DNA of 63,372 nucleotides, the filler included, from Folioceros fuciformis (taxonomy: Eukaryota): NCBI GenBank assembly GCA_049999805.1. It is 4 parts of 3 records of this genome, joined end to end, with 100 filler letters (N's around TTAATTAATTAA, not from the genome) between each part and the next. Parts side by side here need not be neighbours in the genome. Positions count along the whole stretch, not along the records: positions 47,836 to 62,057 come from JBNGIO010006225.1; 3 more parts are not named here. One strand, 5' to 3'. The position numbers and the translations under genes were made by a program. Each line of letters starts with the position of its first letter. The stretch's first letter is position 1. The notes under the pieces were generated by a model that saw nothing but the letters and a program-made list of their open reading frames with translations, ran no database searches and was not told the origin of the DNA. This document shows, in pieces, positions 3,132 through 62,157 of the stretch.

Positions 3132-4804
<1,673 letters not shown>

Positions 4805-19769: not shown

Positions 19770-19877
19770 ATATTGTGTATTTATTTTCACCTTTCAAATA
19801 AAGTCTCGTAAACGAGGCCGTGTGTAGACGAGGCTACCGTGAGCCATGGCCGTGTGTCGATGACGCTACCGTGAGCC

Positions 19878-20672
19878 ATGGCCTGCATACCTTATCAGAT
19901 TCCGAGGTCAAGGGTGGGGGCAAACCAGCTATCGCGCTTACCCAAGCTGCATGCCTCCCCTCCCCTGCAGCTGCGGCGGAGATCGCTGGCTCGGGGTTTG
20001 ATCCCAATGGCAGCGCAGAATGTGGAGAAGGAGCAAGCGGAGCGGGCCACTGGAGTTCTCTTCGTATGCCTCGGAAACATCTGCCGAAGTCCAGCTGCCG
20101 AAGCGATCTTCCGGCGGTGTGTGGAGAAGAGAGGCCTGGAATCTAGCTTCACGATAGATTCTGCGGGTACGATAGGCTATCACGAGGGCAATCCAGCAGA
20201 TTCCAGGATGAGGGAGGCTGCCAAGAGGCGAGCCTTGAACATCACGTCCATCTCGCGGCGCATCCGCCCAAGAGACTTTGAACAGTTTGAGCACATATTG
20301 GCCATGGACAAGAGCAACAAAGCTGACATCCTTAAGGCGTATCAAGCCTGGAGTAAGCAGGGCGCATTGGCACCCATACCCGATGACAAGGTCAGGCTTA
20401 TGTGTGACTTCTGTAACAAGCACACGCTCGACGAAGTCCCAGACCCCTACTACGGCGGCCCTGCAGGGTTCGAGAAGGTGAGCAGGTGCAAGGTGCAGTC
20501 GCAGTTGCAGTTGCAGATGCAGAAGTAAGTTGTGTTTGCCGTGCACGCCGATTTTCTGACCTCCCAACTGCGACCGGTATTGTGTCAGGTATTGGACTTG
20601 CTTGAGGATGCTTGCGAAGGCTTCCTGGACTCGGTCGTGGGGCATCGAGACAATAGCTCCGTTGCTAGCTAG
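19878..20672 (+). CDS. Low-molecular-weight protein tyrosine phosphatase (probably plastid-targeted); exons 19878-20477, 20589-20672
   Basis: VLFVCLGNICRSPAAE P-loop, DSAGT, DPYYGG; last exon VLDLLEDACEGFLD...*. Confidence 0.95.
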
Positions 20673-23134: not shown

Positions 23135-23443
23135 CCAAACCACAACGATCCCTTATACTTTGGCAAGACCAATCACACAAAACAAGGTACCATCCGAGCC
23201 GAGGTCTTAGGCCAAGCTGCCTGTCCCGCAACTGGGTACCACAGCTGAGCGAAAATCCAAACCCTCTTCACTGAAACTGTCTGGCAGAAACCATTGGTCC
23301 GCCGCCGACGCGCGCAGCTGCCCCCTCATTCCGCTCACGGGAGCGCTAGGGCTTGCAGCGCCCGGGGAGCCGTCCGGAGGGCAACGCCGGGATCGAAGGC
23401 TGTGGCCACAGTCGTTGTCAGCGTATGAACATATATATATATA

Positions 23444-38975: not shown

Positions 38976-39250
38976 GTGAAGTGCGGGGGGTGGGTCCGCG
39001 CCGTGCCCAAAATGGGCGTGGCCAGCCTAACAACCTCCAGCGTTGAGCACGGGGAGCGCAGCTCAACTCCGGATTCCACCCGCGATCGCTTGCTTTAGCC
39101 CGTCCTCGGGAGATCGTACATGCAATGTGATGATCGCTTCAAGCGGAGGCCGGCAGTCGCAGTGCCAGAGCGCGAGGTATCTATGCCACGCCGTGGGCCG
39201 CGACTGCTCTCGCAGCTTTGTGTTGCTCTTTGCCTCATGAGAGCCTAGAG

Positions 39251-42200
39251 ATGCGGCAACAACAACACCAACAACAGCAGCAAATGCGGGGGCAACAGCG
39301 GGCCATGGCGCTGCACCCGCACCCTCAGCTGCTGTTGCTGTTCATGGCCGTGGCCATGGCGGGCTTGTTGTCGGCGGAGGGAGCCTCCCCGGCGGAGCTC
39401 GCTGCGCTGCGGGCGGTGCAGGCGGCGCTCACGGATCCGCACGGGAAGATGGACACCTGGGTGGGCAACGATCCCTGCGCGAACTGGGCCGGGGTGGTTT
39501 GCGGCGCCACCAACGGGACCAATGCCAACACCACCGCGACGCCGGTGGTGAGCTTGGACCTGAGCCAGGGAGGGCTGACGGGTACCATCTCCCCCGCCAT
39601 CGGGACCTTGTCCCGCCTGCAGACGCTCAATCTCTCCTTCAACATGCTCACGGGGCCCCTCCCGCTCTCCATGGCCAGTCTCACGTCCCTCCAGGTGCTG
39701 GACTTGAGCATCAACCGGGACGTGGACGACAAGTCGAGTACAGGCCTCACCGGCTCCATCGCGCCAGTGGCTGGCATCCTCTCACTCCAGTACCTGCTGC
39801 TCAACACCAACGGCTTCAACGGCACGCTCCCCGCTTCCCTCGGCAACCTCCGGGAGCTCCAGTGGCTCTACCTGGACAGCAACCAGATCACGGGGACTCT
39901 ACCCTCGCAGCTGGGCAGCCTCCCTGCCCTCACCGACCTGTCCGTGTCCGACAACCAGATGTTGGGCACCATTCCCAGGCAACTGGGGACTGGAGTGGCT
40001 CCGCTCTACTGGCTGGGGCTGGCGCTCAACGATTTCTCGGGGGCGATACCCCAGGAGCTTGGGAACCAGACGGGGCTATTCTTCCTGGACCTGAAGGGGA
40101 ACAGGTTCACCGGGCAGCTTCCGAGCGAGCTCGGCCAGCTCTCTGAGCTGGAGTATCTCTATGTACAGGACAACCAGCTCACGGGCCCGCTGCCCCCGCA
40201 GCTGGGCGGGTGCAGCAAGCTGGTGGAATTCATGGCCTTCGGGAACAGGTTTACAGGAAGCATTCCCTCGCAGCTGTCCAACCTCACCCAGCTCAAGATC
40301 CTGTGGCTGTCTGGTAACAACCTCACCGGCACCATCCCGCCTGCGGTGGTCAACATCTCCTCCCTCACCACCGTCAACCTCGACTCCAACAAGCTCACGG
40401 GGCGGGTGCCCCCGACGGTGGGGTCGCTGCCCAACTTGCAGTATCTCACTCTCTTCGACAACCAGCTCACGGGTGGACTGCCGGCTCCCTTCCGCTCCCA
40501 AGTGCTCAGCATCCTGGATGTGCACGGGAACCCGGGGCTGGGGGGCAGCATCCCGGCGGGGCTGTGCAAGGGGAACTCGCTCACCGTGCTGGCGCTCTCC
40601 AACACCGGGGTTGGGGGCGCCATCCCTCCCGACCTGGCCGCCTGCAGGTCGCTGCAGAGGTTTCGCGTGGGAACCGGATCCCTTGTCGGAAGTGTCCCCG
40701 GCTTCTGCGGCTCCACCCCGCAGCCGCATTTGAATTACGTGGAGCTCAGCAGCAATGATCTCGCAGGCGAGGTCCCTGCCAGCTTCGGGAGCTGCCCCGG
40801 GCTGCAGACACTGAAGCTCGATGGAAACCACCTGACCGGGAGCATTCCGATTGAGTTGGGGACCGCGTCCAATCTCACGGTGTTGGATCTGTCGAGGAAC
40901 CAGCTCTCGGGCAGCATTCCCTCTCAGCTCGGGGCTCTGTCTTCGCTTTCCAGCCTGGCCTTGTCCGGCAATGTTCTGTCGGGGGCTGTGCCGCGGGATC
41001 TCTTCCAGCTCTCCTTCTTGCAGACGCTCCGACTGAGCGACAACCAGTTGACGGGCCCGCTGCCCCCGTCGGTCTCGGGGTTGCAGAGGATACAGGATTT
41101 GGAGCTGGGCGGGAACAGGTTTGCGGGCAGCATTCCTTCGGAACTCGGGAGCCTCACCAGCCTCATCTACGGGCTGAATCTGAGTCACAACGGGTTCAAC
41201 GGGAGCATCCCGGGTACCCTCGGTGGGCTGTCCAGGTTGCAGAGTCTGGACCTGTCTTACAACAACCTGTCGGGTCAGATTCCGGGGTCTTTTGCAGGGT
41301 TGGCGGCTTTGACCTTCTTCAACGTCTCCTACAACCAGCTCTCAGGGCCCATCCCGGACGCCCCCAACCTGAAAAACTTCCCTCAGTCTTCTTTTCTGGG
41401 AAACACGGGGTTCTGCGGTAGTTTACTGTCCGACTGTTCCGGGGGCCAGGTTAGCAGCAGAAGCAGCAAGAACAAGCTTAGCACAGGCGCGTTGGCGGGT
41501 ATTATCGTTGCCGTGGCTCTGATATGTGTGGGTGTTCTGCTGGCGGTCTGGATTTCCTGCTTCGATAGCCACCCCGTTTCTGACGATGGACGTGTCACGA
41601 AGCGGAAGAGCTGGAGCGCGCCCCTGCTGGGTGGTCTGTTCGGCAAGGGCAGGTCGTCTCGTCCCGGCCCTGCCGCCTCCGCGCTTCTTCCGGACTTGTA
41701 TCAAAAGTTCACGTTCCAGGAGATCATGGACGCCACCAACAACTTGAATGACAGGAACCTCATTGGCCAGGGCGGGTTCGGGAAGGTGTATAAGGGGTTG
41801 CTCAAGTCGGGGCAGGAGATCGCCGTGAAGAAGATGACTGTGGAGGAGGAGGATCCCGACGTGTTTCAGAGCCACATGAGGGAAATCCAGACGGCAGGCC
41901 AGGTCCGACACCGTAACATCGTCAGGCTCATAGGCTATTGCAAGCATAACGACACAGCGCTCATTCTCTACGACTATCACCCCTTCGGCAGCCTTGGGGA
42001 TTTTCTGTACAAGAAGAAGGAGAACAGCCCTGACCTGAGCTGGGAGCTGCGCTACAAGATTGCTCTGGGCACAGCGCAGGCCATCTCCTACCTCCACTCG
42101 GATTGTGTGCCTCAGGTTCTGCACAGGGACATCAAGAGTAACAACATTCTTCTGGACGAAGAGTTCGTCCCCTATGTCACGGATTTCGGAGTTGCTAAGC

Positions 42201-42762
42201 TCGTGGCTCGTGTGGACGGAGAGAGAACAGCACCCATGTCTGTGATTGCGGGATCTGTGGGCTACATCGCCCCTGGTGAGTCCCTCTTGTGCCTCCTTTT
42301 GAAACTTCTGTCTGCGTACACTGCGCAACCAAATTGTTTGAAGACAAGCCTAGGGCTTACCAGTTGTGTGGAAACCTTGCAGAATACACTTACACATTGA
42401 ATGTAGGGGAGAAGAGTGATGTCTACAGCTACGGGGTTGTGCTCCTGGAGCTTTTGACGGGCAAGATGCCTGTGGATCCCAGCTTCGAGGAGGGGAGGGA
42501 CTTGGTGCATTGGGTGAGGAACAAGCTGGAGAGTAGCGACACCATCGATGTGGTGCTGGAGCCCGGTCTGCGGAAGGCTATGCAGGGTTCGGAGGCTCAG
42601 GAGATCTCCGCCACACTCAGGGTAGCCATCATGTGTACCAGCGAGACTCCCTCTGACAGGCCCACCATGAAGGAGGTGGAGGATATGTTGCTGAGAGTGA
42701 AGAGTTTCTCCAACCCCGATCTCCTGGCCAGGAACAGGAGCAGGTTGGAATCGCTCATTTGA
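39251..42762 (+). CDS. Leucine-rich-repeat receptor-like kinase (subfamily XI-like); exons 39251-42275, 42383-42762
   Basis: Signal peptide, CxWxGVxC cap, >20 plant LRRs, GNxxFCG cap, TM helix, GQGGFGKVY, AVKK, HRDIKSNN, DFG, GSVGYIAP|EY with a single kinase intron. Confidence 0.96.
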
Positions 42763-46239: not shown

Positions 46240-47835
46240 GACTGAGATTTTGGAAGCCGCAAATGCAGGTCCCGCTGCAGCCCGTGCCACCTACGCCTCC
46301 CGACACTGGCACCACTAGACGAGGGCCAGTTCACAAAATTGCAGGACTGGCACACATCACGCTGACACAGCTGGTACAGGACCGGGCTTAGCTACGAGCC
46401 TAGCGAAGGTGGAGACTCGCTAGCGTGAGCCCCAACCTTCGTTAGGTTGACGTGGAAACTTTCTCTCACTGCCCGGGCTCTGGAAATAGGTCTGTGAGTA
46501 ATTCCTTGGAAAACAAATCGTGAACCTCCGAAACGGCGTGTGGCCTGTCGTGTGTCTCCTTGCGTGTAGACCGCGTGTGCATGAACGACTCCATATGCAA
46601 AAGTCCGTTGGAATTTGGGCACCGGACTTCTTCCACCTTTGTGGGTCCAGGTCAAGTTCTATATAGAAAGCCAACTCGGATCCTGAAAGCCACCTTGGAC
46701 TACCCTCCCCGGAAGCCAATTTCGACCCGGAAGCTAACTTCACTTTAAATACCATTTCCTGGTATTTTTTTGCAGAATAGTTATAAGTTTTTATCTATAC
46801 AATAGTTGAAGTATTTTTTTTCTGTGGGACTTCATGGTATGAATACCACCAAGCCCAATTATCATAACATTGTGCCATAAGCTGCCTATGGAATACCGAT
46901 ATGGACAGGGTTCTTTCCCAGAACTTTAGGGCGGCGGTATAGCGGACCAAAGACTTTTTTTTAACACATATTTATACGCGAATATTCTATAGAATCTATG
47001 GAATATTCCTATAGCCTACCTTACCATATCATCCTACCCTACATATACACGGTATAGCAAAGTTTTTTTTGATAGTCTTTAAAGAATCGTCCTCGACATA
47101 GTGTGTTAAGTTTGTGGCACAGCATTTCGGGTTTAGGGTGCTCCTTGGGTTTTAGGGTTTAGAGCTTTGGCTTGACCAGCTCACGAATTAGCCTACGCGA
47201 ACCTGAGGCATAGAAGCGTGGCTGAGGCATGGAAGAAGAAGCCATGAAGTGTGGCAAGGAACCCTAAACCCAAAAACCCATGGAATGTGCACAGCCATGA
47301 AAGCATGGCCGTTGTGAAACCCTAAACCCATTGGGGAAGGCCCCAATCCTGAAGCAACCTGCCACAACATGGAAATTGAAAACCCTGAGCGTGTGTGGCA
47401 GCAAAAGTTGTGTGTGTATCACTTTTTGTCCCCCATCGGAACGCTTCTATGGCCGCATCTTGCGCAAAACTTGAGACCGTATGTAGCACAACAAAATATT
47501 TGTAATAGAGCATATGACTATATGGGTATTCCATATTCTTCTCCATTCATATTCATTCTTTTTTTTAGTTAGCTAGGGTGGCGTGCAACATGACTAGGTG
47601 GGTGTGAGTGCTTGGGAGGGTGTGGGTAGGGAGCCGGCAAGTGGGCGACTCTGTTGCAGGCCTGATTGGCGCAGGCCAAGTAAGCATGGGGAGTGGGCCT
47701 GTTTGGTGCAAGCCAAGTGAGCATGGGAGCGAGCANNNNNNNNNNNNNNNNNNNNNNNNNNNNNNNNNNNNNNNNNNNNTTAATTAATTAANNNNNNNNN
47801 NNNNNNNNNNNNNNNNNNNNNNNNNNNNNNNNNNN

Positions 47836-48238
47836 GGGTGCTGTCAAGCGTATTTACAGGTACCTTAGAGGAACAATGGACTATGGCCTCCACTACGTGT
47901 GCAGCAGTAAGAGGGAGTTCACACTTACCTCGTATGCAGATGCTAATTGGGCTTCTGACTCCGATTCTCGGAAGAGTCTTTCAGCACATGTGTTCTTGTT
48001 GGCCAAGGGTGCTGTTAATTGGTTGTGCAAGAAGCAGACCTCACTTGCCCTCTCGTCCACGGAAGCCGAGTATAAAGCCCTAACAGACGCATGCAAGGAA
48101 TTAGAATGGGAGAGATAGTTTCTGGACTCAATCAACTTACCACAGGAAGGTCCAACTCTGCTCTTGTGTGACAATATGTCTGCCATAGCTCTTGTGTCAA
48201 ATCCTTGCTTTCATTCAAGGACTAAACACATTGAACTC
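47836..48238 (+). mobile_element. Ty1/copia RT-end/RNase H fragment, interrupted by the downstream LTR
   Basis: KRIYRYLRGT..YADANWASD..RKS..SSTEAEY..CDNMSAI..FHSRTKHIEL, then TGTTAAAGG (LTR start). Confidence 0.92.
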
Positions 48239-48485
48239 TGTTAAAGGAAATTACCCTTAGCCTATGTCTAGGGTGATTTGATGAACAGGTTAGAAAAATC
48301 TCATTTAGGGTTGACTAGTGAACCGACACCATTGGGATGTTTTTTTAAGACCGTTTACATTCTTTGTAGGTGAGATAATGTATGATTATTCAATAAGAAA
48401 TATATACATGTTTTTGTACAAGAGTTCTGGCCTCCCGGCTCTCCTCTAACACCTATCATAGATGACTATCATCAGTTAGTTCACA
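48239..48485 (+). repeat. 5' LTR (247 bp)
   Basis: Aligns to 54922-55169 with 8 substitutions and 1 indel by manual count. Confidence 0.95.
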
Positions 48486-48498
48486 TGGTATCAGAGCC
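48486..48498 (+). promoter_or_regulatory. Primer binding site, tRNA-Met(i)
   Basis: TGGTATCAGAGCC directly after the LTR. Confidence 0.95.
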
Positions 48499-49644
48499 TA
48501 ATCCCTCTATGCCTTTTGGCATAACCAATGCACCATGTATCTGGTCTGCCAGGATCGCTCGACATGCTACTGTAAAAGAACAGGAAAAGCATATTTTAGC
48601 GATCTACAGAATGGCATCCCTTTTGTTCGGAAAAATAATCCAAAAGTTTAAAGGAATGTCGTACCTTTTCTCTGGGAGATGAACCAAGAGGCAAGATGCC
48701 TCGAAGATCTGCAAATGGAAGAGGCAACGTTCTTCGACGAGAACACTTATATTGGCAGAACCAGAACGTGATCAACACAGAATCACATGTTCAACGGTCA
48801 AGGACCAACCGACAATGAGGGAGACAAGATTCACATTGCTGTGAAAGGAGGAGAATCACTCCACCACCCTGCCAGCGCCCAATTCGATCTGCAACCTACA
48901 CAATTCCACCATACAGAGAGAAACCCTTAGAGGCAATTCTGATTAATGTGGTATTTAAGCAATTGTCGGTGCTGAGACAGGTGGAGAAGATTCAGTCGCT
49001 GCTATTACAAAGCCAAGAAGATATTGTTGGCAACATCGAAGAACTGAGATATTCTCTGGAGCAGACAGCAATTGCTGGATCAGAAATCATAAAGGAGGAT
49101 ATGAAAAGCATGGTGATTCTCCTGCAAAATATGAGTATGAGATTTTCTGCCGCCCATGGTGACAGATCTGCCCAGATTCATTGATCTCCTCCTGCTTCCG
49201 CTGCTGGAGAGCTGGTGATGGTGTCTACCTCTGGTGCTGTTGAGGCTATGGATTCCAAACGCTGTCTTCTGCAAGGTGTCCTTTCACCTCTAGGTATCTC
49301 TTAGAATGTGGTTGGTCCACCTGGAAAGACATCAAGAAAAGATGGTTAGGTTTCAGCTGAAACGCCATACTTAAATAATTCAAATTAAGTTGTAACGTGT
49401 TCATACCTAATCTCTAAAGGATAATTAAGGTTTTTTTTTTCCTAGCAAGGAGGGATCTCAAGGAGAGGGTGGGCATGAGGAGGCCAGGATACGACAGTAC
49501 CCCTTCCCACTCGAACATACCCCTCCTCAGATCACTCCCTGCCATGCCCTAGTTAGTCTGTAACACAAGAGGCAACCTATAGACATAACATACTTACTTG
49601 TGTTTCTAGAGCCATAGCTATAGTTACCTTGTTAGTTTTTTTTT

Positions 49645-52600
49645 ATGTCCGCAGGATCTCCCCTCTCAATTGACACACTGATCGGGTTGTTCCAAGCTCT
49701 TAGCCTCAGACAACTCGCAACCAACGTTAATCAGAACGTTCAGAACATCCAGCCTGTAGCTATGGTAGCCGCGGTACCCAAAGCTACATACACATCAGAA
49801 TTGAAGGAGAAAGATCGCTTCAATGGCAGAAGGTATCCAGTTTGGAGAATCAGAATGAAAGCTACCTTGATAGCTCGACGCGTGTGGAAAATCATAGATG
49901 GAACCATAAAGAAACCATATCCAAATGCAAATCCACCTCCAACAGTAGATCAAATTGCTGAATGGGATGAATTAAATGGCATTGCCATTGCCCTGTTGAT
50001 TGGAGGCCTGGATGCAGATCTCATACCAGAAGTTGAGTTCCTAGAAAACGCTTCTGATATCTGGTCACAATTGGAAAAGACCTATAAAGTCACCAATGTG
50101 TTAACTCTTTGTGCCATCAAACACGAATTCTATAGCTTAAAAATGAAAGAGGGGGATAAAGTGGTGGCATTTACAAGTAAGTTTCAACACTTAAAGGCGC
50201 AGATAGCTTCACTAACTGGAACCAAGATGGATGAACTGGATGCTGTGGCTGAGCTGCTCACTCGACTTCCCCCTTCATATCAGTCCTTTGTCACTAGTCA
50301 AAATGGTCCTCTACGCACTGCTGCTGTTGTTGCTGCTGGAGGCGCTGCACAGATCACCCTTGAGGAGGTGATAGGCGCCTTGTATCAGGAAGTGCAGAGT
50401 CGCTTATTATCTTCGACTATTCCTAAGAACAGGACAAAGAAAGCGTTAGCAGCTGGTCAGAGAACATTTAAAGGAAAAGGCAAGGCAGGAGGTAGACCTC
50501 ACCAAACTTCAGACTCTGTTGGTCCTTCCAAACGCCCAGGAAACTGCAATTGGTGCAGCATAGCTGAGCACTGGGCCAGAGAATGCAAGAAAACGAAGGC
50601 TAGGGAACCAAAACGAACTCCTAAAAGTACTGCAACTGTTGCATTTAAGGAGAAGTCAACAGGTGACTCCAAGCCAGTGGTGAAAATCCTTACAGTCTGC
50701 CTAGCTCGATCTGTATGTGATGAAGACGGATGGTACTTGGACTCTGGTGCAACCTCGCACATCTGCCGAAACAAGAGTCAGTTCTTTACTTTAAAGACAT
50801 CATGATCAGGTCTCAGAAAGAGTCCTCTTGGGAGATGAAAAGAATCAATCTAGTCTCCAGATTACAGGCTATGGAACATGCAAATTCACCCTTGATGATG
50901 GGTCGATTCTTACCTTGGATGGTGTTCTCTATGTTCCCTCCATGGCGAAGAACCTGGTTTCCCTCAGTAAGCTTATGCAGATGCGTGTATATGACATGAA
51001 AGCCAGTGAAGATGCTTGTCTTTTCTACAAAAGATCAGAGCCTTCTTTGCTGGCATTCAAGGGCACTCTCGACCATGATCTCTACAGACTTGACATCTGT
51101 ACCCTACGTCATAAGGCAAGCCTTGTATCCAGTCAGCCCCAACGTCTTGCTGTCCTGTGGCATGCACGGCTAGGGCACGTTAATAAGAGGAAGTTAGTGG
51201 ATATGTCATTGCAAGAATGTCACCTTGAGCCACTACCTCAGGTTTTTAAGGACTTACCATCCTGTGAAGCTTGCATTGTCGCTAAACCAAAAGCACACCC
51301 GTTTCCTGTATCAGCAACATACAGAGCCACTACCGTTTTAGAATTGGTCCATGCAGACTTCTCAGGTAAGATACATGTTCCCTCTTTAGGAGGATCCATT
51401 TACTACCTCTGCATTACCGACGACTATTCACGATACACCTGGACATTTCCTATGCAACTCAAGAGTGATACCTTTGATCTGTTTCGAGACTGGTTGTTGA
51501 CTGCTGAGAAGCAGACAGGCCAGTTCGTAAAATATCTTAGGACAGATAATGGAACTGAGTTTGTGAATATGGCGTTCAACACCTTCCTGCAAGAGAGGGG
51601 GATCCAACGTCAACTTACTGTTCCGTATACCCCACAACAGAACGGAGTAGCCAAGCGCAAGAATCAAACATTGCTGGCGATGACAAGAAGTATGTTGTTG
51701 TGGGCAAACTTACCTCAGAAATATTGGGCAGAGGCCATAGTTGCAGCCACATATACTCTGAACCGACTGTTCACCAGTTCCGTTCCCTCGAAGACCCCTT
51801 ATGAAGCATACTGGAAACGCAAGCCCAGCTTGCTCCACTTACGAGTTTTCGGCTCCCGTGCTTTTGCTCTCATTCCAGAGGAGAAGCGAAAGAAGCTGGA
51901 CCCGAGAGCCCAAGCACTTATCTTCGTTGGCTACAGTGAACAGTCCAAGGCATATAAACTCTATGACCCTGCAGAAAGAAGAGTGGTATTATCTCTCTCA
52001 GTTACTTTCCTAGAGATCGACAGACCTCTCATCATAGGACAGACAACGACTGAGGGAGACATTCTACCTGCTACAGTGGAGGATGTGGTCTATTTTCCAG
52101 AAGATGATTCACAAGATGAGGGAGATGCCAATGCAATCTAGGAAATTCCCCTCATTATTCCACCCGTAGCTCCTATCCCGCCTGTGATTCCACAGCCTGC
52201 AAATGTTTTAGTCCCACCTCCACCTCCAGTCCAGAATCCTATTTTAGATATGGAGGCAGAAGGAGATGTAGATCATGAGCTAGTCGTTGAGGACTTACCC
52301 GTAGGGGATGAATAGTTGCCAGTCGTCCTTGATCCTGAACCAGATCCTCCCCTACGACGTTCCACAAGAAATCGCCCTCCTCCAGACCAGTGGAAAGAGC
52401 CGAGATATGAGTCAATTGATTTCAGAACGTCTTATGCTGACATCTGCAATTCTGCATCAAGTACTATACACCTAGAACCTAAGACTCTTACAGAAGCCTA
52501 TTCAGGGCCTGAACGAGAAAAATGGAAGTTTGCAGTGGACGATGAATACAACTCTCTTGTCAAAAACAAAACCTAGCAACTATTAGACCTCCCACCTGGC

Positions 52601-54057
52601 AGAAAACCCATATCCAGCAAGTGGGTGTTTAAGCTAAAACTTAATGCAAAAGGTGAGATTGCCAGATACAAAGCCAGGTTAGTAGCACGTGGATTCACAC
52701 AAGTTGAAGGTTTAGATTACCAAGAGACGTTCTCCCCTGTTGTGAGAGCGCAATCTATCAGAATGATAATATCCCTTGCAGCAGAATTTGATTTGGACTT
52801 ACAACAAATGAACGTTTGTACTGCCTTTCTATATGGAGCACTGGATGAAGACTTATATATGATGTAGCCTGAAGGCTATGAAGACCCTAAGCATCCCAAG
52901 AAAGTCCTCAAGCTACTGAAGACAATCTACGGCCTAAAACAGAGTGGCCGTGTTTGGTACCTAACCATTCATGAATATCTGATTAGTAGTTCTTTCATAC
53001 AGAGCGCTGCAGACAGTAATGTATACAAGTTGACAAAAGGTGATGACTATGTTGTTCTAGCCTTGTACGTCAACGATGTAATACTTGCTACAAACAACCA
53101 AAAGCTGCTAGCAGAAGTTAAGGAAATGCTAAACAGCAAGTTTGAAATGAAAGACATAGGCGAGCTTAAGTTTTGTTTGGGGATCCAGCTCTTAAGAGTC
53201 AGAGCAGAAAGGCTTATCATAATACATCAATATCAATATGTTCAGGAGCTGTTGCAAAGGTTCAAATTAGAACAGGCGAGACCTTCTACTACTCCCTATG
53301 CTTTGGGGACTAAACTTACTAGCCAGCAGTGTCCTCAAGCAGCTGACGAAAATAGGAAGATGTCACAGGTGCCCTACAGGCACGCCATAGGGAGTTTAAT
53401 ATTCATAGCAAACTGGACACGCCCCGACATACAGTATTCAGTCAGCACCCTATCACAGTTTCTAGAAAATCCTGGCAGAGTGCACTAGATTGCAGCAAAG
53501 CGTGTATTCCGGTATCTAAAGGGGACACAATGCTATGGGCTTGCATTCAGAAGCAGTGGTGAGGGCAAGCTTACGCTGAGGGGGTTCACTAATGCAGATT
53601 GGGCGTCAGATACTGAGTCCCGTCGCAGCTTGTCCACATATTGTTTTCTTCTATCCTCTGCAGCCATCAACTGGAGCTGCAAAAAGCAAACTTCAGTGGC
53701 GATATCCTCCACAGAGGCCGAATATAAAAGTTTAACAGAAGCCTCTAAGGAGGTTGAATGGGAGTGTACCTTCTTGTCTGATCTCGAACAAAAGCAGACA
53801 GCGCCAATTCCCATTCTGTGTGATAATATGTCAGCAATTGAGCTTGTGGCCAATCCCAAATTTCACGCCAGAACCAAACATATTGAAATACAACATCATT
53901 ATATAACGGATGTTGTTGGCGTGAGATAGTTAAGGTGAGCTATGTAGCAACAGACCAAAACACTGCTGATATTCTCACGAAAGGCCTTCCTAAGCACAGA
54001 CATTATGAACACATGGAAGGACTCGGGCTACTTGACTTCTCAGAGTATTTGGGATAG
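49645..54057 (+). pseudogene. Copia gag-pol polyprotein, disrupted
   Basis: CNWCSIAEHWAREC knuckle, WYLDSGATSH protease, WHARLGH / LVHAD / RTDNG / TPQQNG integrase, YKARLVARGF RT, SSTEAEY RNase H. Frameshift at ~50800, several TAG stops, and catalytic D>N and E>K changes. Confidence 0.93.
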
Positions 54058-54921
54058 TGAGCTGCAAACTTATCTGGTTGAAGGGGGGTGGAAGCCTTGC
54101 TCCCTGATTGTGCTTTTCGCACAAGTTCTCAACCAGACAGCCTGCAACACTATGTCCGCCTTGGAGTTAGTCCCTCTCAGTCTTTGACACACATGAGCTG
54201 CAGAAGGATGAAGCATCACACTTACCTAATCTTCTGTCCAACTCGTGCTTTTTTTTAAGTCAGCTCTAATTAAACCCGACTTCTCTCATCCTGTTCAGCA
54301 GCCTGATGGTGTCTTCAAGCTGCTTCACAAGACCTTGTCTTCCCTCTTCACTTTCTTCAGGACTTGGAGGTTTGGATTTCCTAGCGTCCTTTTTCTTCAC
54401 CTTCCCTATCACTAGGGACACATACATCTCTACGTGGTAGCTGCCTAGTTGCACATATTGTCCCACGATATGTTTGCTGTCCCACTCCCAGCCTCTCGCG
54501 ACTTCGTCCCGTCCTAGGGACACCACTTCTTATGAGGAGGCTTCTATGTTTGAGGTTGTGGGCTGGGGACTAGCAACTCTTTGCCTCTTATTCGCAGGAG
54601 GCTGTGTGTGAAGCTCCTTGCCACTGCGAGTTCTCATGACAGCCAAGCGCAGCAGATGAAGAAACACAAACAGTACCAGCTCAATTGCAGCAATCTTGGA
54701 AGCAAGATTGGTTGCCATCTTGTGCACCGACACCGACTTCTTGTTACGTCTCCTCGGCGCTGTCCTACAGAATTCGAAGGGGCGTGCTGCCGCCAGTTTC
54801 GCGTGAAGCAGAGCGTGATGATTTTGTTTTTAATTGCTCGCTGTCCTTCCTTATGTCCTGTCCTTCAGTCTCTGTGCACGCCAACTTAAGTTGCGCTGAC
54901 ACGGCTACACCTAAGAGGGAG

Positions 54922-55169
54922 TGTTAAAGGAAATTACCCTTAGCCTATGTCTACGGTGATTTCGTGAATAGGTTAGAAAAATCTCATTTAGGGTTGACTA
55001 GTGAACCGACACCATTGGGATGTTTTTTTTAAGACAGTTTACATTCTTTGTAGGTGAGATAATGTATGATTATTCAATAAGAAATAGATACATGTTTTTG
55101 TACAAGAGTTCTGGCCTCCCAACTCTCCTCTAACACCTATCATAGATGACTATCATCAGTTAGTTCACA
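54922..55169 (+). repeat. 3' LTR (248 bp)
   Basis: Direct repeat of 48239-48485, preceded by the PPT. Confidence 0.95.
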
Positions 55170-55918
55170 CATATGCATGCGGCAGCGGCGTACCCTGGAG
55201 CCCGTGGCTCTGAGCGGATAGCTCTAGACCAAACAATGTTCCCACAAGCACGTTCTTTTGCTCCCTCATATCTATTTGAACCAATACAATACACTCTTCT
55301 GAAAGCGTCTCAACAACACCTTATTTTTCCCAACCCAAGTAAGAATGGCTCCGCGATTGGAGATGTGCTCTCAATCTGTTCGACATCAAAATGCGCCTAC
55401 AAAAAGGTTTCTTGTTATGTCCTGCTCATTTTTAAAAAACGATATCGCACCTCTCTAAATCCTGGTTTACCAAGCAGTCTCAGACATTGTCTCATACAAC
55501 ATATCTTTCTATAATCAAGGGAAATGCGAAGCTTTGAACACTTAGCCTCTGGTATTGTTGAAGGTCTCTTCCGCCGATATCATCGATGATGTAAGGGTGT
55601 TTCGATCATTGACTCCGACGCCGGCTTCCGATTAAAGGTCGACCGTTGGCTAGGTGTTTGTCTTGAATCCGAACACTCTTGACTGCAACGCCCTTCTTCA
55701 TTTGCATTCATGAAATCGTTCACTTCCTGCATATGTGTTCCAGTACCTAGGCCCCAACCTTCTGTGCCACTCCCTCTCGAGAACCTACGAACATCGGCGT
55801 TTCTCTGTAGCGGTGTAGTCTTCATCACTGTGCCCACAAATGAATGTCGTAGAGATGACGGGCTTGGAGAACTATGCACTTCATCCAGAAGACTGAGACA
55901 GATTGGTGACGACCTCAA
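55170..55918 (-). pseudogene. Probable N-terminal part of a Sola/DUF7869-like DNA transposase, truncated by the Copia LTR
   Basis: Read-through of ORF 55580-55918 gives KICCMRQCLRLLGKPGFREVRYRFLKMSRT*QETFL*AHF...FLLGLGKIRCC*DAFRRVYCIGSNRY. This fits the CCxxxC..R..F....Q..FL / xCxxAFxxxYxIxxxR pattern I associate with these transposases; the catalytic domain is not in view. Confidence 0.45.
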
Positions 55919-56225
55919 CTCCTCAAACTAATGTATGGAAGGATGGTCTCCTGGGGATTAAAATCATCCACGGATTAGTAAAGCAGAAGCAAATCATAGT
56001 CATGTGAATCCAAGGTCACAAAGAATTGTCTGCTCTTCCAAACCTTTGTTGCTACTATCTTCATAGAAATTCTCCATACCGCAACATGATGATGAAGGTT
56101 TGTTTGCCATGGAAGCATGAAGAACAAAGTGTGCGTATACACTTCGGCTTGGCTGGCTTTCAAATGTCCAGCGTTGTAACAAGGCCCTACACCAAGTCCC
56201 GAAGCGCGGGTGATTAATGCAATCA

Positions 56226-56378
56226 GAACGTTAGACCAAAAATAGAACTAGCTCTTCTGCGAGAATTGACGCTGGAAACGACCATTATCATGCTATTTCG
56301 ATTTGAACGTTTGAGTCAAAATAGAACTAACTGTTCAGCGAGAATCACCGCCTGATACGACCTGCATCGCGCTATAAA
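56226..56378. promoter_or_regulatory. Two diverged 79-bp direct repeats ending in TATAAA, between divergent ORFs
   Basis: gaacgtt..caaaa(a)tagaacta..gcgagaat..acgacc..gctat at 56226 and 56305; TATAAA at 56373-56378, ~85 bp upstream of ATG 56461. Confidence 0.55.
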
Positions 56379-56460
56379 TGCATTGGCGGTCGGTAACAGT
56401 GGATATTCGGTTTCAGCTGAACAGTTCGTTTTCGAATTCTTTCTCGTACAAATCCGGTGC

Positions 56461-59400
56461 ATGGGCACCTCTTCTCCAACTGCTTCCATCACCAGAAAAG
56501 ACTACGTGCTATGCAACTCTTCCCTTGTTGGGTGGACACCAATGGCATCTAGTCGTCGTAGCAACAAACTTCAGCTTGTGGAGAGGGATGTTTAGGCGCT
56601 TCCACGAGTACGAAAGCAAAGGAATGCCAGGAGAGCAACTGTGCGAGCATCGTTTGGTCACAACACTGACAGAGATGGACACCGACCTACACCACCCGCT
56701 GGCGAAGAGGCTACTCCCATCGCCCAGACCGCCGGAGGAAGAAAGGATAACTCAGGTGGGAGCGTGAGAGCGTCCAATTCAAAAGCAAGCGAAGGACCTT
56801 TGAACCACATTCCGCTAACTCTGAATCACAGAGGCAGTACAAGAGGCAGTCAAAATTACAACATTCTGAATGCCTACAACTTTGTAGAGCGATTGAGACT
56901 GAAGAAGTAACAAGACACTCTGGCCAAAAGATTCAACACTGATAAGGAATGGTTTTTGATAGCTGAAGATGAGCCTGATGACTTGAACTTGCCGGGGTTT
57001 CCTCTTGTTGCTCTATGGGTGAATGGGTTTCAAGGTTTGGTGGAGGACAAAGCAGGAAGGGCAGGATGGATTCTTTGTGCGCCTGTGGACAGTGAAGACG
57101 ATGAAACTCACTTGAATTTCATCCTCACCCGTCACCCACCAAGCCACATTACGGATGACTACGACAGTCACAGTTTAGTGGTTGTGAATGTTGCGAAAGC
57201 CATACCTTGCCGATGGGAACCGCTATGGATGAAAAACACGCTAAGAGATTGTCTGTTCTTGAAGGATGTAAGTGGTCTTATAAGCTTAAAAGGTTAAAAT
57301 GTAATTACCAAGAATTATCATAAACCCTAACTTTTGTGATTGTTTTTTCACTAATTAGGGTGGAGAACAGTTTTGTCGAACAATTTTGCGGTGTGTAGGG
57401 GACGCGGTGCTGAAGAACAGGGCTCTTGTGGTGTGGCTTGCAGGGGAGCGGCAGCGGAAGACGGCGCAAGCAGAATTTGGAGTCCTCAACACTCATGTAG
57501 TAGGATTCGTGAAAGACAATCAGGACATGCTTCGTATGCAACCTGAGATTTCAGAAGAAAAGGCACCCTACGTTCACGAACTCAGCGAAGAGCAGGAAGT
57601 CAAGGAGATGGCTCAATACTCCTTAGCTGAAGACAGTTTGAATGATGCTCTGGAGACTCCTCGCAATTCTTGCGAGGGTGATGCATCTGAGGAGGAGTCT
57701 CCTGTGGAGATCACTCCACCGCGAAAGAGGGTGACCTAGGGGCGCCGGTCTACTAGCGCACCAGAGCAGCGGAAGAGGAAAGCATCAGCGTCTCCTGCGA
57801 AACAGCGGAAAATGACATTCGGTGAGGCTGTTGTGTGCAAGCTGAGTATTTTGCTTTGGATTTGTTTCTAGCTTCCTGGATTCTGTTGCTAAAACATTGA
57901 CCATTGACCCCGATGTTCCTCCTCTTGTATGTCTCCACAGCCGAAACGGCGAAAAGCAGCAGGCACTGCAACAAGAGGGCAAGCAGCGAATCAAAAGAGA
58001 CGGAAGGGCGGGGCATTGCACCAGGTGCAGCCAGAGCCAACCCGGGCATTGGAAATAGACACAGAGAGGTTTGAGAGATAGCGCAAGATGAGGACTACCT
58101 GAATGGGATAAGGAAGAAGGCCCATGCCAAGAGGATAAGGTCCACAACGTTTGATCTACATGTGGATATTTTGTATCTTGCCTCTTTTATCACCTCTGAC
58201 GCACAAATAAGGCAGGCAGATGAAGCTTGGATGAAAAGCTTAGTGAGGCAGATGTAGGCTGGGTCCGTTAAGGAAGGGATCTTGCCCCTCCTGTGTATAA
58301 TTGATCCTAAGCAAGCAGCGAGCAAGGAAGAAGTTTCCTTGGATAGGATCACGGCGCAGCAGTACTACATGGGAGTCTTAGGGGGCAACCACTGCTTTGC
58401 AACCATGTAGAAACTCCATTAGATGTTCCCCGCAGAAGATAAGTATGAATGGATGGAAGGGCAAGTGTATGGTGGGTTGACAGAGGAAGAGATGAGGGTT
58501 CTTGCTATCGACCACAATGTCTATGTAGACAAGCGGAAGAGGATGGGATTTATTGAGCAGGTGCGATATATCCATGACGAGCTTGACATTTTCTTCAGGA
58601 ATCATTTAGGAGAAGAGAAGCCACCAGTCAAGTGGAAGTTCAACCTATACAAGTTGCTAGGGATGATTGACGAAGGTGGAGATCCCCACGACACAGACTG
58701 GGTGCAGAAGATGGTGGACAGGCAGACCTTGCCATATCGGGTAGCTAGATGCACAGGTGTTTTGTGGGACAATGTGGATAGGATCTTCAGAATGTGGGAA
58801 CAGTGTGAGCTCCCAGAGCAGAAGAGCATGGTAACAGCCGGGACCACAAAGAGGGCAAAGGCAAAAAGGAAGACAGGAGATTCTGCCTTGCAAAGTTCTG
58901 TTACCCAGGTTACCGAAGACAGCAGCAGGAGGCCAGGAGCTATGCAAGGTAGGCCATGGAGAGCCTTTCAAGGCGGCCCAACAGGTGTCAAGGGAGAGGA
59001 GATGTTGATAGCGGTGACGCAGAAGGTCATCTAGGGGAAGCTTCAACTGCGGGACATGGACATTGAAGTGGGGAAGAAGAAGAAGATACACCTGATCCAA
59101 CATGCCTTCCGACTGGCAATGAAGTGTGAAACATTTGAGGAGGCCGAAGAGATGTACCCGAAGCACACAAAAGATGGTCATCTCTTAAAATTCCAGACTG
59201 CCTTCGCCAAAGTTTTTCCATTCATTTCTCGTGTTACTTATTCGGTTCCTTAAGCAGGAGTGCGCCAGTAGACCGACACACTCTTGTCTGCATAAGCAGG
59301 AGTGCGCCAGTCTACCGGCGCACTCGAGATGGCTGAGGCTCAAGTGCGTCGGTCTACCGACGCACTGCTGCAAGAGCGGGCCCAAGTGTGCCGGTAGACC

Positions 59401-60805
59401 GGCGCACTCAAGCCCTGTGGAGCTCGAGTGCGCCGATCTACCGGTGCACTAGGCCTTGCACTGAGTCCAATGCGCCAATAGACCGGCGCCTTGGAGCTCC
59501 AGCGGTCTCGAGTGCGCCGGTCTACCGGCACACTCATGTATGTTCATGCTAAAGTAGCTGTATCGGTAGCCAGACTAACGTTTACCATTCTGGTTGCAGA
59601 AACCCTCAGAGATAGCGGACTTGAAGTCCCTCCCAAAGCCTTTTCATGATTTCGTTTATTCGGCAAAAAACTGGAAAAGGATGGAAGAGGAGAAACAGAA
59701 GTTGACGGCAGCGGATATGGAAGCAGGGCTGCCAGATTTTTGGGTTTCAGCGAGTAACTCAAAGGTAAAATACCAGGTTATTCAAAGGAATGTACTAGAA
59801 ATGAAGGCATTCCTTGTCAAACGACCCTACACGCTGCTATTTGCAGACCTGCCTCGGGGCTTACAACGTCATGAGTATGACAGGCAAATGACGGTGGAAG
59901 ATTTGGATGAAATTCTCCAAGGGTTTAGTGAATGCACCTCGAGCAATATTTTTAGGGTTATTCTAATGCACGGAGTAGACATGATTTCGGAAGCAAAGGA
60001 GGTACTGCGGCCATGGTGCAAGAAGGGCAGCATCCAGACATTGGTATGGGAGAAGACGAACATACCCCCAAACGCAGGAGCTGTGGAGACAGTTGAGTAT
60101 GTCACGGTTGGGAGTGCAATTCACACAGAGGCTCAGGAATCGAAGGCTGCACTATTTGCGAATCATGGATTTCTGCTCCCAAGGGTTATAAGGCATGGAG
60201 TGGTGGTGACGAAGCACCTCTTTCATTCAGCAGATGCGCATATTGTCTCCCCTTACCGAAAACCATTAGGGTTGATGCGTATGCTGATTAACATGTTTTT
60301 GTGTGAGGGAGACTAGGTGGTTGATGCATGCGCAGGCTCTGAATCTCTCCTCCAAAGTGCAGTTCAACAGGGAAGGCATGCGGTTGCGATCGATGTGGAT
60401 GTCAGGTGCACATCATATATCATGCAGCGGATTATCGGGCTAGGGTCTTTGCCTGACGCAGATGAGGACATTACTACAGAGGCGTTTACGTGAGGCCCAT
60501 CAAAGTTTTGGGCGAAGGAAGTGTGCGGTGATGGGAGCGTGGACCACAAACTAATGGTATTCAGTATGTTGGGTAAGAAAGAAGAGGACATACACCAGAT
60601 TGATGATAGGCTTGCAGAAGACCTTTACGCCATCACTATCTGGGATGAGAATTGCACCCTACCGCCTCAAACTACAGAGGACCCCAACTTTTCAGTGCTT
60701 CGAGTGGGTACCGATGACTTCGGCAATACAGATGCACAACGCTTGAATGATTTGGATGTAGTTGTGGACTCCGAAGCCAACCAGGATGATCCTGTTTTCG
60801 TTTGA
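56461..60805 (+). pseudogene. ParB/Srx-like domain + beta-class N6A/N4C DNA methyltransferase fusion; predicted exons 56461-57267, 57359-57821, 57941-59211, 59600-60805
   Basis: Three GT-AG introns join all ORF pieces into one 1,249-codon frame with 10 point stops and no frameshift. ParB-like QIRQAD..LVRQM / VLGGNHC(R)FA / VYGGLTEEEMRVLAIDHN. MTase TLLFADLPRG, LVWEK, PYRKPLGLMRMLI..EGD*VVDACAGSES..QGRHAVAIDVD. Confidence 0.8.
59258..59535. repeat. Array of seven 26-bp palindromes (GAGTGCGCCGGT-AG/CT-ACCGGCGCACTC) at exact 42-bp period with 16-bp variable spacers
   Basis: Units start at 59258, 59300, 59342, 59384, 59426, 59468 and 59510, inside predicted intron 59212-59599. Confidence 0.95.
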
Positions 60806-61027
60806 GAATACACTTGATTTAATTTGAATTGGTATAATCTTAACTTGAAGTACTTTGAAAAATTTGACCGGCGCACCATATGTTTAGGGTTGCAAAATAT
60901 CAAGTTTTGCATAGAAGACTCAAATTGTTTTTTTTCAGTAATTTTGGTTTTATTGACCTATGCAGCAACAAAAAAATTCAGATAAAATGCGCAAAATGGG
61001 CGTTGTGGAATCCGCCTGTCTGGCTTA

Positions 61028-61500
61028 GACCATGTTCTCTTGTCTCATTCCCCAGAGGGCCTCTAAAAGCAACTAGACATATTGTCAAGCTTTTCTGAGG
61101 CTAGAGACTTGGAGGTAAACCTCAAGCAGACCAAGGTCATGTTCTTCGATCGGCGGGATCCAGTTAACCACAATCTAAAGTTCTTCTATAATGGCCAGCC
61201 GGTGGAGGTTGTGCGGTCTTATGTCTACTTGGGTGGTGCTATCTATGGTCCAACACTCCAATGGAAGCTCTCTGCCTCAACTCATATTCTCAAGGGTGTG
61301 GCATCGGCATGTGGGGTGCAGAGACAATGCACTCGGATGTACATCAAGGACATCCCCACCCAACAATGGTTGTTTAACACAGTTGTGGTTCCTTCAGCAA
61401 TATATGTAGCGGAGTTTTGGGGACCTTATCTCTCACTCGATGATCGGTCCAAAGTGAAGGAAGTTCAGACATCCTTTCTTTCTTCAGAACTCCGTAGTCA
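61028..61500 (+). mobile_element. LINE (RTE-like) reverse transcriptase C-terminal fragment
   Basis: VLLSHSPEGL*KQLDILSSF..LEVNLKQTKVMFF..VEVVRSYVYLG..LFNTVVVPSAIYVAEFWG. Confidence 0.85.
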
Positions 61501-62157
61501 AGCGCTCTTGGGCTGGATCAGTATTGGGATGGGTGACCTCCCGAGAAGTCCCGGTGCTGCACGCTTCCTTTCTCGCTTCCTGCAGAACTTTCCAATTTTT
61601 GCTTTTTTGCTCTTTCTTTTTCTTCCTGTTTCTGCTTTTTCTTCTTTTCTTGGGTCGTTCCCCCATAATAGGTAGCAAACGCTCAAACCTTTTTCTCCCT
61701 AAACAAGGGAAACAACGAAATGAAAAAATCTTCTACCTTTTTCTACCTATTTCTACCTAAAAAAAGAATCTTTTTTCCCAAAAGGCATGTAGTTTAATTC
61801 TGTTTCTTGGTGTGTTTCCTTCTCATAAAGCTGTTCCCTTCTTTGCGGCTTTTGTAACCTTGAAGGCAAGTAGTTTGTGTAGTCCTTTTTCGTTGCCTAT
61901 TGTTTTCTTTAAGGGCATGTACTTTAGTTCTTTCCTCTACGTGTTCTTTTCCGTGTCTTTCTATGATTTAGGCTTTCCTAAAACCCATGTACTTTAGTTT
62001 ATAAAGGCCCCTAAACCCCCAAAAGCTTAGGCTTTCAAAACAAACTTTACTTTATAGNNNNNNNNNNNNNNNNNNNNNNNNNNNNNNNNNNNNNNNNNNN
62101 NTTAATTAATTAANNNNNNNNNNNNNNNNNNNNNNNNNNNNNNNNNNNNNNNNNNNN

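Follow-up and report, generated by a model that had tools for sequence, protein, structure and literature searches.

The palindrome array considered here lies on a 14.2-kb contig of Folioceros fuciformis, placed between the linkers 47736-47835 and 62058-62157 of the window (the whole 63,372-nt stretch of joined DNA that was analysed). All features given a strand below are on the plus strand. Upstream on this contig is a Ty1-copia retrotransposon with LTRs of about 250 bp (48239-55169), nested inside an older copia fragment (47836-48238), and its downstream end is a 5'-truncated LINE-like fragment (60985-62057) with an RT-like frame at 61067-61675 for which no Pfam match was found. Loose contig ends are consistent at 60984/60985, and we read the LINE-like fragment as probably truncating the 3' side of the element that carries the array, which the copia element interrupts as well. 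Neither a transposase nor an element terminus was found in the 14.2 kb.

The host gene of the array consists of a ParB-like exon region (58075-59213), running in a single frame with four in-frame TAG codons (aa 61, 112, 116 and 320 of P0001), and a beta-class N6/N4 DNA-methylase-like exon region (59600-60493) with one in-frame TAG (60314-60316), whose frame extends beyond a TGA codon (60491-60493) up to around 60805. Between the two domains lies an intron-equivalent segment (59214-59599) that contains the array and ends in the acceptor ttgcag| (59594-59599). The window copy has lost its splice donor, some 7 nt having been deleted near 59213; five contigs from other copies continue beyond 59213 with GGTAAGTTTTTCC..., giving the donor GTG|GTAAGT. 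With its five in-frame TAG stops and lost donor, the gene is a pseudogene. The intronic location of the array, put forward in an earlier sequence-only reading of this DNA, is borne out by the donor in other copies and by homologous proteins that span the gap, residues 477 to 483 of P0009 and 1408 to 1413 of P0010 bridging window positions 59214/59211 to 59630/59633. A coding reading of the array, in which 42 bp would be 14 codons and two frames are partly open, was rejected because homologous proteins cross the gap uninterrupted and stops occur within and after the array. Further upstream, two exon-like open frames, at 56911-57267 and 57360-57823 (56911-57823 overall), are accompanied by a GTAAGT donor and an acceptor of the tag type. 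They had no Pfam match and no tblastn match from the 103 homologues described below, and could at most be listed as putative exons of the same gene.

The identity of the host gene as a fusion of a ParB fold and an N6/N4-methylase, also part of the earlier reading, is supported by HMMER, by Pfam in the homologues, by PHROG and by structure alignment. Two word-indexed protein searches with window translations returned nothing, and relatives surfaced only in full HMMER, with 103 homologue matches belonging to a family expanded in streptophytes. The methylase domain PF01555 was detected at E <= 0.01 in all 19 homologues scanned, in 16 of them above the Pfam cut-off of 26.7 bits. The window translation itself has no Pfam match at E <= 0.1, and so stays below the PF01555 gathering score, and matches five PHROG methyltransferase families (best E 9e-9). 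Both regions are present in one protein in P0009, P0010, P0011 and P0031. In the beta class, motif IV, (D/N/S)PP(Y/F/W), precedes motif I, FxGxG; this order is retained, with motif I reading DACAGSES. Motif IV takes the form DxPYG across the wider family and is DFPYG or DIPHG in other homologues; the window copy shares DLPRG, in which Arg replaces the aromatic residue, with its three closest relatives (P0003-P0005), and the enzyme may therefore be altered or inactive.

Structural comparison used a model of P0009 (pLDDT 78) and an exhaustive fold aligner. The methylase part of this model aligns with CcrM at Z 23.5. For residues 90-440, the only non-methylase matches with Z >= 6 were chains of the ParB/Srx fold: pNOB8 ParB-N (Z 8.7, rmsd 5.0, 212 aligned), PadC (8.4), KorB (7.8), SerK (7.3) and sulfiredoxin (7.0), with Spo0J at 5.2. 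The ParB-like region of the window gave weaker values (PadC 6.5, KorB 5.5, ParB-N 5.2), and matches in this range, Z 5-9, are graded as middling by the aligner. No Pfam ParB family was found in the window protein or in five homologues, even at E <= 10, and a Foldseek search with the whole P0009 model returned only methylases among the best 50. A stretch resembling Box II, the CTP-binding motif GxxRxxA, reads GGGH(S/C)REA in family members (also written GGxH(S/C)REA) and GGNHCFAT in the decayed window copy, and a feature search with P0009 listed phage clusters of ParB_N plus N6_N4_Mtase at 0.86-0.87. The ParB-like and helical region is followed by the methylase rather than by a C-terminal dimerisation domain, and no ParA-like frame was present among the contig frames scanned against Pfam (14 kb examined).

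The array itself (59258-59535, no strand assigned) comprises seven degenerate 26-bp palindromes, each with 12-bp arms and an asymmetric 2-bp centre (CT or AG), separated by six 16-bp spacers. The units start at 59258, 59300, 59342, 59384, 59426, 59468 and 59510, so that successive starts are exactly 42 bp apart. This arrangement is as originally described, as are the spacers, letter for letter, the flipping centres of units 1 to 7 (AG, CT, CT, AG, CT, AG, CT) and the paired change in unit 3 (C8>T with G19>A). The consensus proposed at the time is matched exactly by none of the seven units, which depart from it at 3, 1, 4, 2, 3, 7 and 1 positions, respectively (21 of 182 in total). Most of these differences are transitions (16/21), 12 of the 16 at CG/CHG sites; the palindromes of this dead copy have decayed mostly in this way, and each unit keeps 9-11 of its 12 arm pairs intact. 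The array is real and above chance: a 22-nt core pattern, scanned across the whole window with up to 3 mismatches, gave seven matches, whereas not one of 100 dinucleotide shuffles gave any. Array units account for six of the seven; unit 6, which requires 5 mismatches, falls outside the scan. The seventh match is a solitary eighth palindrome core (57740-57761, no strand assigned) with 3 mismatches of 20, in a K/R-rich exon-like stretch 1.5 kb upstream. A perfect 10-nt half-site, ACCGGCGCAC, lies just 3' of the gene (60867-60876, no strand assigned). Allowing up to 1 mismatch, four half-sites occur outside the array, three of them no further than 4 kb from the gene.

The family exists in very many copies, represented by 1348 contigs from the same organism, and the array recurs in the same inter-domain intron of another gene copy, with four units, three fewer than in the window. 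A contig of that copy runs from the exon-intron border into the downstream exon and is shorter than the window copy by exactly 126 bp (3 x 42), and contigs of other copies connect the array with both flanking exons. Contig depth, a measure that cannot rank parts, is no higher over the array than over the exons. In the window the units are far better kept than the spacers (mean pairwise identity 0.795 vs 0.471), and in other copies units are bordered by unrelated spacers. Across five unit-to-unit junctions of other copies the periods are 39, 40, 42, 43 and 62 bp, so exact four-turn phasing, by which a 42-bp period would have placed all sites on one face of the helix, is not a conserved feature; the sequence-only reading had itself named unconserved spacing as an outcome that would refute it.

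Beyond this genome, the exact 22-nt core was found in metagenomes at 19 loci, all of them single sites in bacterial-type contexts, with terminator-like A-run/T-run flanks or 70-77% GC. None of the 19 has the CT/AG centre, a 42-bp array or a tblastn match to the ParB-methylase proteins, and at two (L001 and L012) overlapping matches 8 nt apart represent a short GC-rich repeat. These loci were rejected as relatives of the array and are regarded as chance hairpins, and are thus uninformative on the plant element. Viral contigs gave no match to the core. A CRISPR-like reading was likewise rejected, the setting being eukaryotic, the spacers 16 nt long and some of them mutually related.

We propose, with a probability of roughly 0.4, that the array forms a group of cis-acting candidate sites for the ParB-like domain of the element itself. 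In active copies the palindromes would be near-identical, and the protein would dock on them through its ParB-like N-terminal and helical part, probably as a dimer. Docking would raise the local concentration of the methylase on DNA of the element itself, a self-marking device that may be likened to parS sites within or beside parB genes. Palindromic sites are bound by ParB, KorB and Noc. The better preservation of units than of spacers argues for this reading, as do the full site at 57740 and the perfect half-site at 60867 in the same element, and the published parallels of PAG3 and Sola1 discussed below. It is weakened by the absence of Pfam ParB matches, by the middling structural scores, by the differing periods in other copies and by the DLPRG form of motif IV, with which the enzyme may be altered or inactive. 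The ParB/Srx fold, moreover, is also found in enzymes that do not bind DNA, such as Srx and SerK, which counts against docking in the same way. A phage ParB that partners a DNA dioxygenase is described, in the portion of the report used here, as having no obvious DNA-binding domain and as working as an activator (PMC13229309). Palindromes would suit RNA or DNA hairpins equally well.

An array that arose without any protein is the first alternative to be weighed, and the spacers are informative in this respect. The original statement that they differ stands only in part: S2 and S4 each agree with S6, read as its reverse complement, at 12 of 16 positions. In addition, S1 shares 11 of 16 positions with the 16 nt 5' of unit 1 (F5). 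Of 5000 shuffles that preserved composition, 0.28% reached a best match of 12/16, and none contained three pairs at or above 11/16. Two larger blocks, U4-S4-U5 and U6-S6-U7, show 83% complementarity across 64 nt, and their centres agree in orientation. The likeness of S2 and S4 to the reverse complement of S6 shows that inverted block duplication made part of the array, and since such a duplication requires no protein it counts against docking sites. On this basis the array could be a neutral, self-propagating palindromic minisatellite with no function for the element, growing and shrinking through unequal exchange, through template switching and through the inverted duplication of blocks at palindromes prone to form hairpins, with short-tract conversion among look-alike units holding these similar while the spacers drift. 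Such an origin would fit the block and inverted duplications, the shift in copy number by whole periods (the 126 bp, or three units, absent elsewhere), the differing periods between copies and the free decay of the window units. Nevertheless, whole-unit duplication followed by drift would not yield both the contrast in identity between units and spacers and the unrelated spacers of other copies. It also accords poorly with the additional sites elsewhere in the same element and with the presence of an array in the same intron of at least one other diverged copy, and we consider it rather unlikely. Slippage, by which whole unit and spacer are repeated head-to-tail, is not the pattern seen here, units and spacers differing as they do in conservation, though three spacer or flank pairs are related. 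The array went unreported by Tandem Repeats Finder because the spacers lower unit identity below its threshold. With regard to a MITE or other independent interspersed repeat, which would have its own termini and target duplication, neither terminal repeats nor a duplication were found around the array.

The palindromes could instead act once transcribed, by forming long imperfect dsRNA that either feeds small-RNA silencing, as host defence or self-restraint, or joins the splice sites of the intron. The 388-nt intron-equivalent has a predicted folding energy of -206.4 kcal/mol, compared with -136.6 +/- 6.2 for 100 shuffles (z = -11.3, none as good), although any array of palindromes folds so and the z-score is therefore non-discriminating. 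The predicted pairings are U1-U3, U4-U7 and U5-U6, and five of the seven single units, as DNA, are still predicted to form hairpins (-8.5 to -12.5 kcal/mol), but with single-unit stems of just 9-12 bp. Symmetry-keeping double changes, if real, would favour pairing over protein recognition. Three were counted over all 12 pairs, as against 1.0 expected from column shuffling (P = 0.049); with the outermost pair dropped, there are 2 against 0.73 expected (P = 0.14). This is weak evidence, and compensatory change as proof of pairing was rejected, its significance being no better than P = 0.05. The solitary site and the half-site, which lie outside the intron, do not fit an intron-only role, and a function of this kind appears unlikely. 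Least probable is binding by another protein, either a host factor or the element's transposase as in subterminal repeats: CACTA and hAT transposons do carry clusters of short transposase-binding repeats, and sites are spread across at least 3 kb of this element, but the array is internal and intronic, not subterminal as far as is visible, and the lack of a transposase or terminus in the 14.2-kb contig leaves the transposase part of the earlier reading without basis there.

Taking docking on the element's own sites as the preferred explanation, it is tempting to extend it to a eukaryotic counterpart of ParB-parS in a streptophyte element, whose intronic 26-bp palindromes would load its own ParB-fold/methylase protein. 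The protein would then write N6-methyladenine or N4-methylcytosine on the DNA of the element, which might thereby escape or re-program host silencing, or tether or partition an extrachromosomal form. This larger scheme is doubtful; if true, it would represent sequence-programmed self-methylation by a plant-lineage transposon. It would also bear on whether mobile elements can place 6mA or 4mC marks in plant-lineage genomes. Should the array prove to be only a minisatellite prone to hairpins, it would be a repeat of the ordinary kind. Observations of ParB-like fusions on transposons of eukaryotes are recent and come from red, brown and green algae; to our knowledge nobody has shown which targets they bind, and we found no description in the literature of such a fusion in streptophytes.

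Several known systems invite comparison. In the ParB-parS, KorB-OB and Noc-NBS systems of bacteria and plasmids, a ParB-fold N-terminus followed by a helical domain acts on palindromic sites that frequently number several and frequently lie within or close to the gene encoding the binding protein. Palindromic sites at the gene and a ParB fold with a helical domain are shared with the present locus. It differs in the length of its sites (26 bp rather than 13-16 bp), in its eukaryotic and intronic setting, in the absence of a visible ParA partner and in the replacement of the C-terminal dimerisation domain by a methylase. Bacterial REP/BIME elements are arrays of imperfect palindromes, which occur in both orientations in BIMEs and are joined by linkers that are short and variable. 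In the family of repeats of EBV oriP, a dimeric tethering protein has its palindromic sites at even spacing. These belong to other kingdoms and other proteins, the present locus has no RAYT-like or EBNA1-like gene, and the resemblance is one of analogy only.

The domain pair itself is known from phages and prophages, in which fusions of the ParB-CTPase fold to an N6_N4 methylase (PF01555) exist; these are from prokaryotic viruses, and the part of that report consulted describes no site arrays (PMC12704722). A closer parallel is found in Ectocarpus, where the 21.5-kb transposon Sola1-1_Ec32 encodes a 1104-aa accessory protein with ParB-like and DNA-methylase domains, proposed to bind and epigenetically modify its own transposon. 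The comparison is with a brown alga and is made at the level of domain architecture, and no site array is described in the sections of that paper drawn on here (PMC12477816). The closest parallel is provided by the giant Plavaka transposons (CACTA/EnSpm superfamily) of red algae. Their PAG3 protein combines a ParB-like N-terminus with a 2OG-oxygenase and is encoded next to tandem inverted-repeat arrays; most copies are degenerate, and Petroll et al. suggest that these elements are bound and modified by their own protein (bioRxiv 10.1101/2025.02.11.637652). The idea of a self-docking array is thus not new, being in print for the ParB-like accessory genes of these elements. All three features, namely a ParB-like domain of a mobile element, its fusion to a DNA-modifying enzyme, and tandem inverted repeats at the gene, are present here as well. 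The enzyme is a 2OG oxygenase in Plavaka and a beta-class N6/N4 methylase here, the array lies beside the gene there and inside the inter-domain intron here, and the hosts are red algae there and a streptophyte lineage here, the transposon class being read only in the former. The main text of that preprint gives no unit length, period or sequence of its arrays for comparison (10.1101/2025.02.11.637652). Set beside these systems, the present family offers a sharply defined candidate site, a clustered 26-bp palindrome within the gene's own intron, with which the idea of self-binding, self-modifying transposons becomes directly testable.

Seven 26-bp palindromic units lie at positions 59258-59535, their starts exactly 42 bp apart, each consisting of two 12-bp arms around an asymmetric 2-bp centre (AG, CT, CT, AG, CT, AG and CT in unit order), with six spacers of 16 bp between them. 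Period, centres and spacers are as given by the sequence-only reading. The array is real and non-random. A 22-nt core pattern, allowing up to 3 mismatches, matched the window at seven places, six of them array units, and had no match in any of 100 dinucleotide-preserving shuffles of the window; unit 6, with 5 mismatches, falls beyond this search. Tandem Repeats Finder, run on the window, did not report the array. The units had been described as copies of one consensus, which none of the seven equals: units 1 to 7 carry 3, 1, 4, 2, 3, 7 and 1 differences from it, or 21 of 182 positions. Transitions make up 16 of these 21 (12 G>A and 4 C>T); on our reading of the consensus, seven of them fall in a CG and five in a CHG context. 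This dominance and context are the signature of methylated-cytosine deamination in a plant-type genome.

The spacers, noted earlier as all different, do differ in sequence, but the reverse complement of S6 agrees with S2, and likewise with S4, at 12/16 positions, and the 16 nt located 5' of unit 1 match S1 at 11/16. Among 5000 composition-preserving shuffles, a best match of 12/16 arose in 0.28%, and three pairs at 11/16 or better in none. Moreover, U4-S4-U5 and U6-S6-U7 are 83% complementary across 64 nt, which shows inverted block duplication to be the source of part of the array, and hence of some of the centre flips. The symmetry-keeping double change reported for unit 3 (positions 8/19) is present, and unit 6 has two more (1/26 and 3/24). 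Such changes provide weak evidence, with three observed against 1.0 expected (P = 0.049), or two against 0.73 without the outer pair (P = 0.14).

The copy of the gene that carries the array is dead and decayed. Its first frame (58075-59253) is interrupted by four TAG codons and its second (59600-60493) by one, and neither matched Pfam. Run through a full HMMER search against 1.84 billion representatives, the second frame yielded 103 matches, 15 of them at E <= 1e-10. PF01555 (N6_N4_Mtase) was detected at E <= 0.01 in all 19 homologues scanned, exceeding the Pfam cut-off in 16, and the window's own translation matches PHROG DNA-methyltransferase families (E 9e-9). The first frame, too, aligns with four of these homologues (P0009, P0010, P0011 and P0031; E 3.5e-34 to 2e-11), so that both regions form a single protein in intact relatives. 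Exhaustive structural alignment of an AlphaFold model of P0009 (pLDDT 78) paired predicted residues 519-767 with CcrM (Z 23.5), and residues 90-440 with pNOB8 ParB-N (Z 8.7, 212 aligned), PadC (8.4), KorB (7.8), SerK (7.3), sulfiredoxin (7.0) and Spo0J (5.2); all non-methylase matches at Z >= 6 are ParB/Srx-fold chains. The decayed ParB-like region of the window (model pLDDT 65) retrieved the same families at Z 4.4-6.5. No Pfam ParB family was found in the window's protein or in five homologues even at E <= 10. In view of the fold and methylase matches, the earlier name ParB-methyltransferase is a fair one, with a caveat at motif IV (59840-59860), which is DxPYG in the wider family but DLPRG both in the window and in the three relatives nearest to it (P0003-P0005). 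The aromatic residue of this motif normally stacks on the target base, and arginine in its place may indicate altered specificity or lost activity. By NCBI naming, twelve or more relatives of P0009 are hypothetical proteins of Chara braunii, and its nearest atlas clusters are from Streptophyta, followed by phage clusters with ParB_N and N6_N4_Mtase. In the predicted protein P0010 (1825 aa), the ParB-like and methylase regions are each present twice, with long low-complexity stretches, Ala/Pro-rich and acidic, between them; this may represent two adjacent copies merged by gene prediction.

The array occupies about 278 of the approximately 386 nt of an intron. Across it, P0009 passes from residue 477 to 483 and P0010 from residue 1408 to 1413, both over window positions 59214/59211 to 59630/59633. 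By sequence, ttgcag, ending at 59599, is a good splice acceptor. In five contigs from other copies GGTAAGTTTTTCC... continues after 59213 (agreement 0.89), which combines with AAAGT of the window to give the donor GTG/GTAAGT. The window copy has lost about 7 nt near 59213, and the donor with them.

Contigs of at least 80% likeness to 56000-61100 were aligned from DNA sequencing runs X1, X2 and X4, all of one sample of the same organism, and from a fourth run, X3. The 1348 contigs of X1 (141 at >=99%, 285 at 95-99%, 510 at 90-95% and 412 below 90%) show a highly multi-copy and old family. One contig, found in X1 and X2 and thus from the same sample, spans the exon-intron border, array and downstream exon, and is short by exactly 126 bp (59355 to 59482), or three periods. 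It shows that the array belongs to this intron in another copy, diverged by about 11%, and that unit number varies by whole periods among copies. Five unit-to-unit junctions from other copies, listed out of 32 such rows, have unrelated letters between units, and their coordinates give periods of 40, 39, 62, 42 and 43 bp. The palindrome is thus the conserved part, with spacer sequence free and spacer length kept only roughly, which weakens the four-turn helical phasing proposed previously. Over 56000-61100, run X4 has nearly complete C>T differences at 358 places and G>A differences at 166 that X1 and X2 lack. It resembles a library of bisulfite type, and its read-level data could show cytosine methylation of the array.

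Identical linkers of the form N44-TTAATTAATTAA-N44, with stops in all frames, join separate contigs at 47736-47835 and 62058-62157, so that the contig of the array is only 47836-62057, and neighbours across linkers are without physical linkage. Along this contig come first an older copia fragment (47836-48238 and from 55170) enclosing a younger nested Ty1-copia (48239-55169, domains at 49636-53488) with LTRs of about 250 bp (48239-48485 and 54922-55169, 96-97% alike), then the array-bearing gene, and lastly a LINE-like fragment from 60985; the loose ends of contigs from other copies fall consistently at 60984/60985. Upstream of the first exon-like frame of the gene, 56215-56372 consists of two adjoining direct repeats of 79 nt with 71% likeness. 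Other contigs carry an LRR receptor kinase with LRRNT_2 (39134-42400), which, with the Ty1-copia content, identifies the genome as plant-like, and host-type genes for a 3'-5' exonuclease domain (21998-23152, minus strand), a UPF0261/PEP-hydrolase-like pair (29120-31935, minus strand) and a low-molecular-weight phosphotyrosine phosphatase (19875-20528, plus strand). A long series of plus-strand open frames without Pfam match extends over 5916-20528, including frames of 924 aa (5916-8690) and 331 aa (8956-9951).

With a probability of about 0.4, the leading reading is that the array docks the ParB-like domain of its own element, aiming the fused methylase at that element. ParB, KorB and Noc bind palindromes, frequently within or close to their own genes, and this places docking first. 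Near-identical palindromes with free spacers in one intron, with extra sites in the element, are also what a cluster of recognition sites should look like. Indeed, a solitary palindrome core (57740-57761, the seventh match to the core pattern), a perfect half-site (60867-60876) and a one-mismatch half-site (57077) lie in the same element, and the remaining 59 kb of the window contain a single such half-site, at 3843. The palindromes would be recognised, presumably by a dimer, through the ParB-fold and helical N-terminal half, and docking would bring the methylase onto the element, whatever purpose its mark may serve. The original idea of cognate sites is plausible and partly supported. The exact core also occurs in 19 metagenome contigs, in all 19 as single bacterial-type hairpins with other centres, with no array at 42-bp period and no ParB-methylase gene in these contigs, and has no match in viral contigs; these results speak neither for nor against any reading.

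A neutral, hairpin-prone palindromic minisatellite, which would account for the block and inverted duplications, the unit number varying between copies and the variable periods, is appreciably less probable, as units are far better kept than spacers (mean pairwise identity within the window 0.795 versus 0.471). Somewhat more doubtful still is a structured intron whose double-stranded RNA would act in small-RNA silencing or in splicing: the predicted fold of -206.4 kcal/mol (z = -11.3) agrees with it, as do the hairpins predicted for single units as DNA, the strongest at -12.5 kcal/mol, but the same folding is expected of any palindrome array. Sites for a host factor or a transposase, the latter suggested at the outset, are improbable, and open-frame and Pfam scans of 47836-62057 found no transposase.

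The docking reading has its closest precedent, by description, in the red-algal giant Plavaka transposons, where, according to Petroll et al. (bioRxiv 10.1101/2025.02.11.637652), tandem inverted-repeat arrays adjoin PAG3, a ParB-like and 2OG-oxygenase accessory gene proposed to bind and modify its own transposon. For an accessory protein of a Sola1 element that combines ParB-like and methylase parts, an Ectocarpus transposon survey (PMC12477816) suggests the same self-binding and self-modification. A ParB-CTPase fold survey (PMC12704722) reports ParB-N6_N4 methylase fusions as enriched in phages. A ParB fold is no proof of site binding, since a phage ParB-like activator of a DNA dioxygenase is described, in PMC13229309, as having no obvious DNA-binding domain. 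The concept of a self-binding transposon gene thus already exists for algal transposons. Our literature search found neither the ParB-methylase family nor an array within an intron described for streptophytes. New here are a family from streptophytes, a methylase as the fusion partner, the location of the array in an intron, and a 26-bp candidate site with exact limits.
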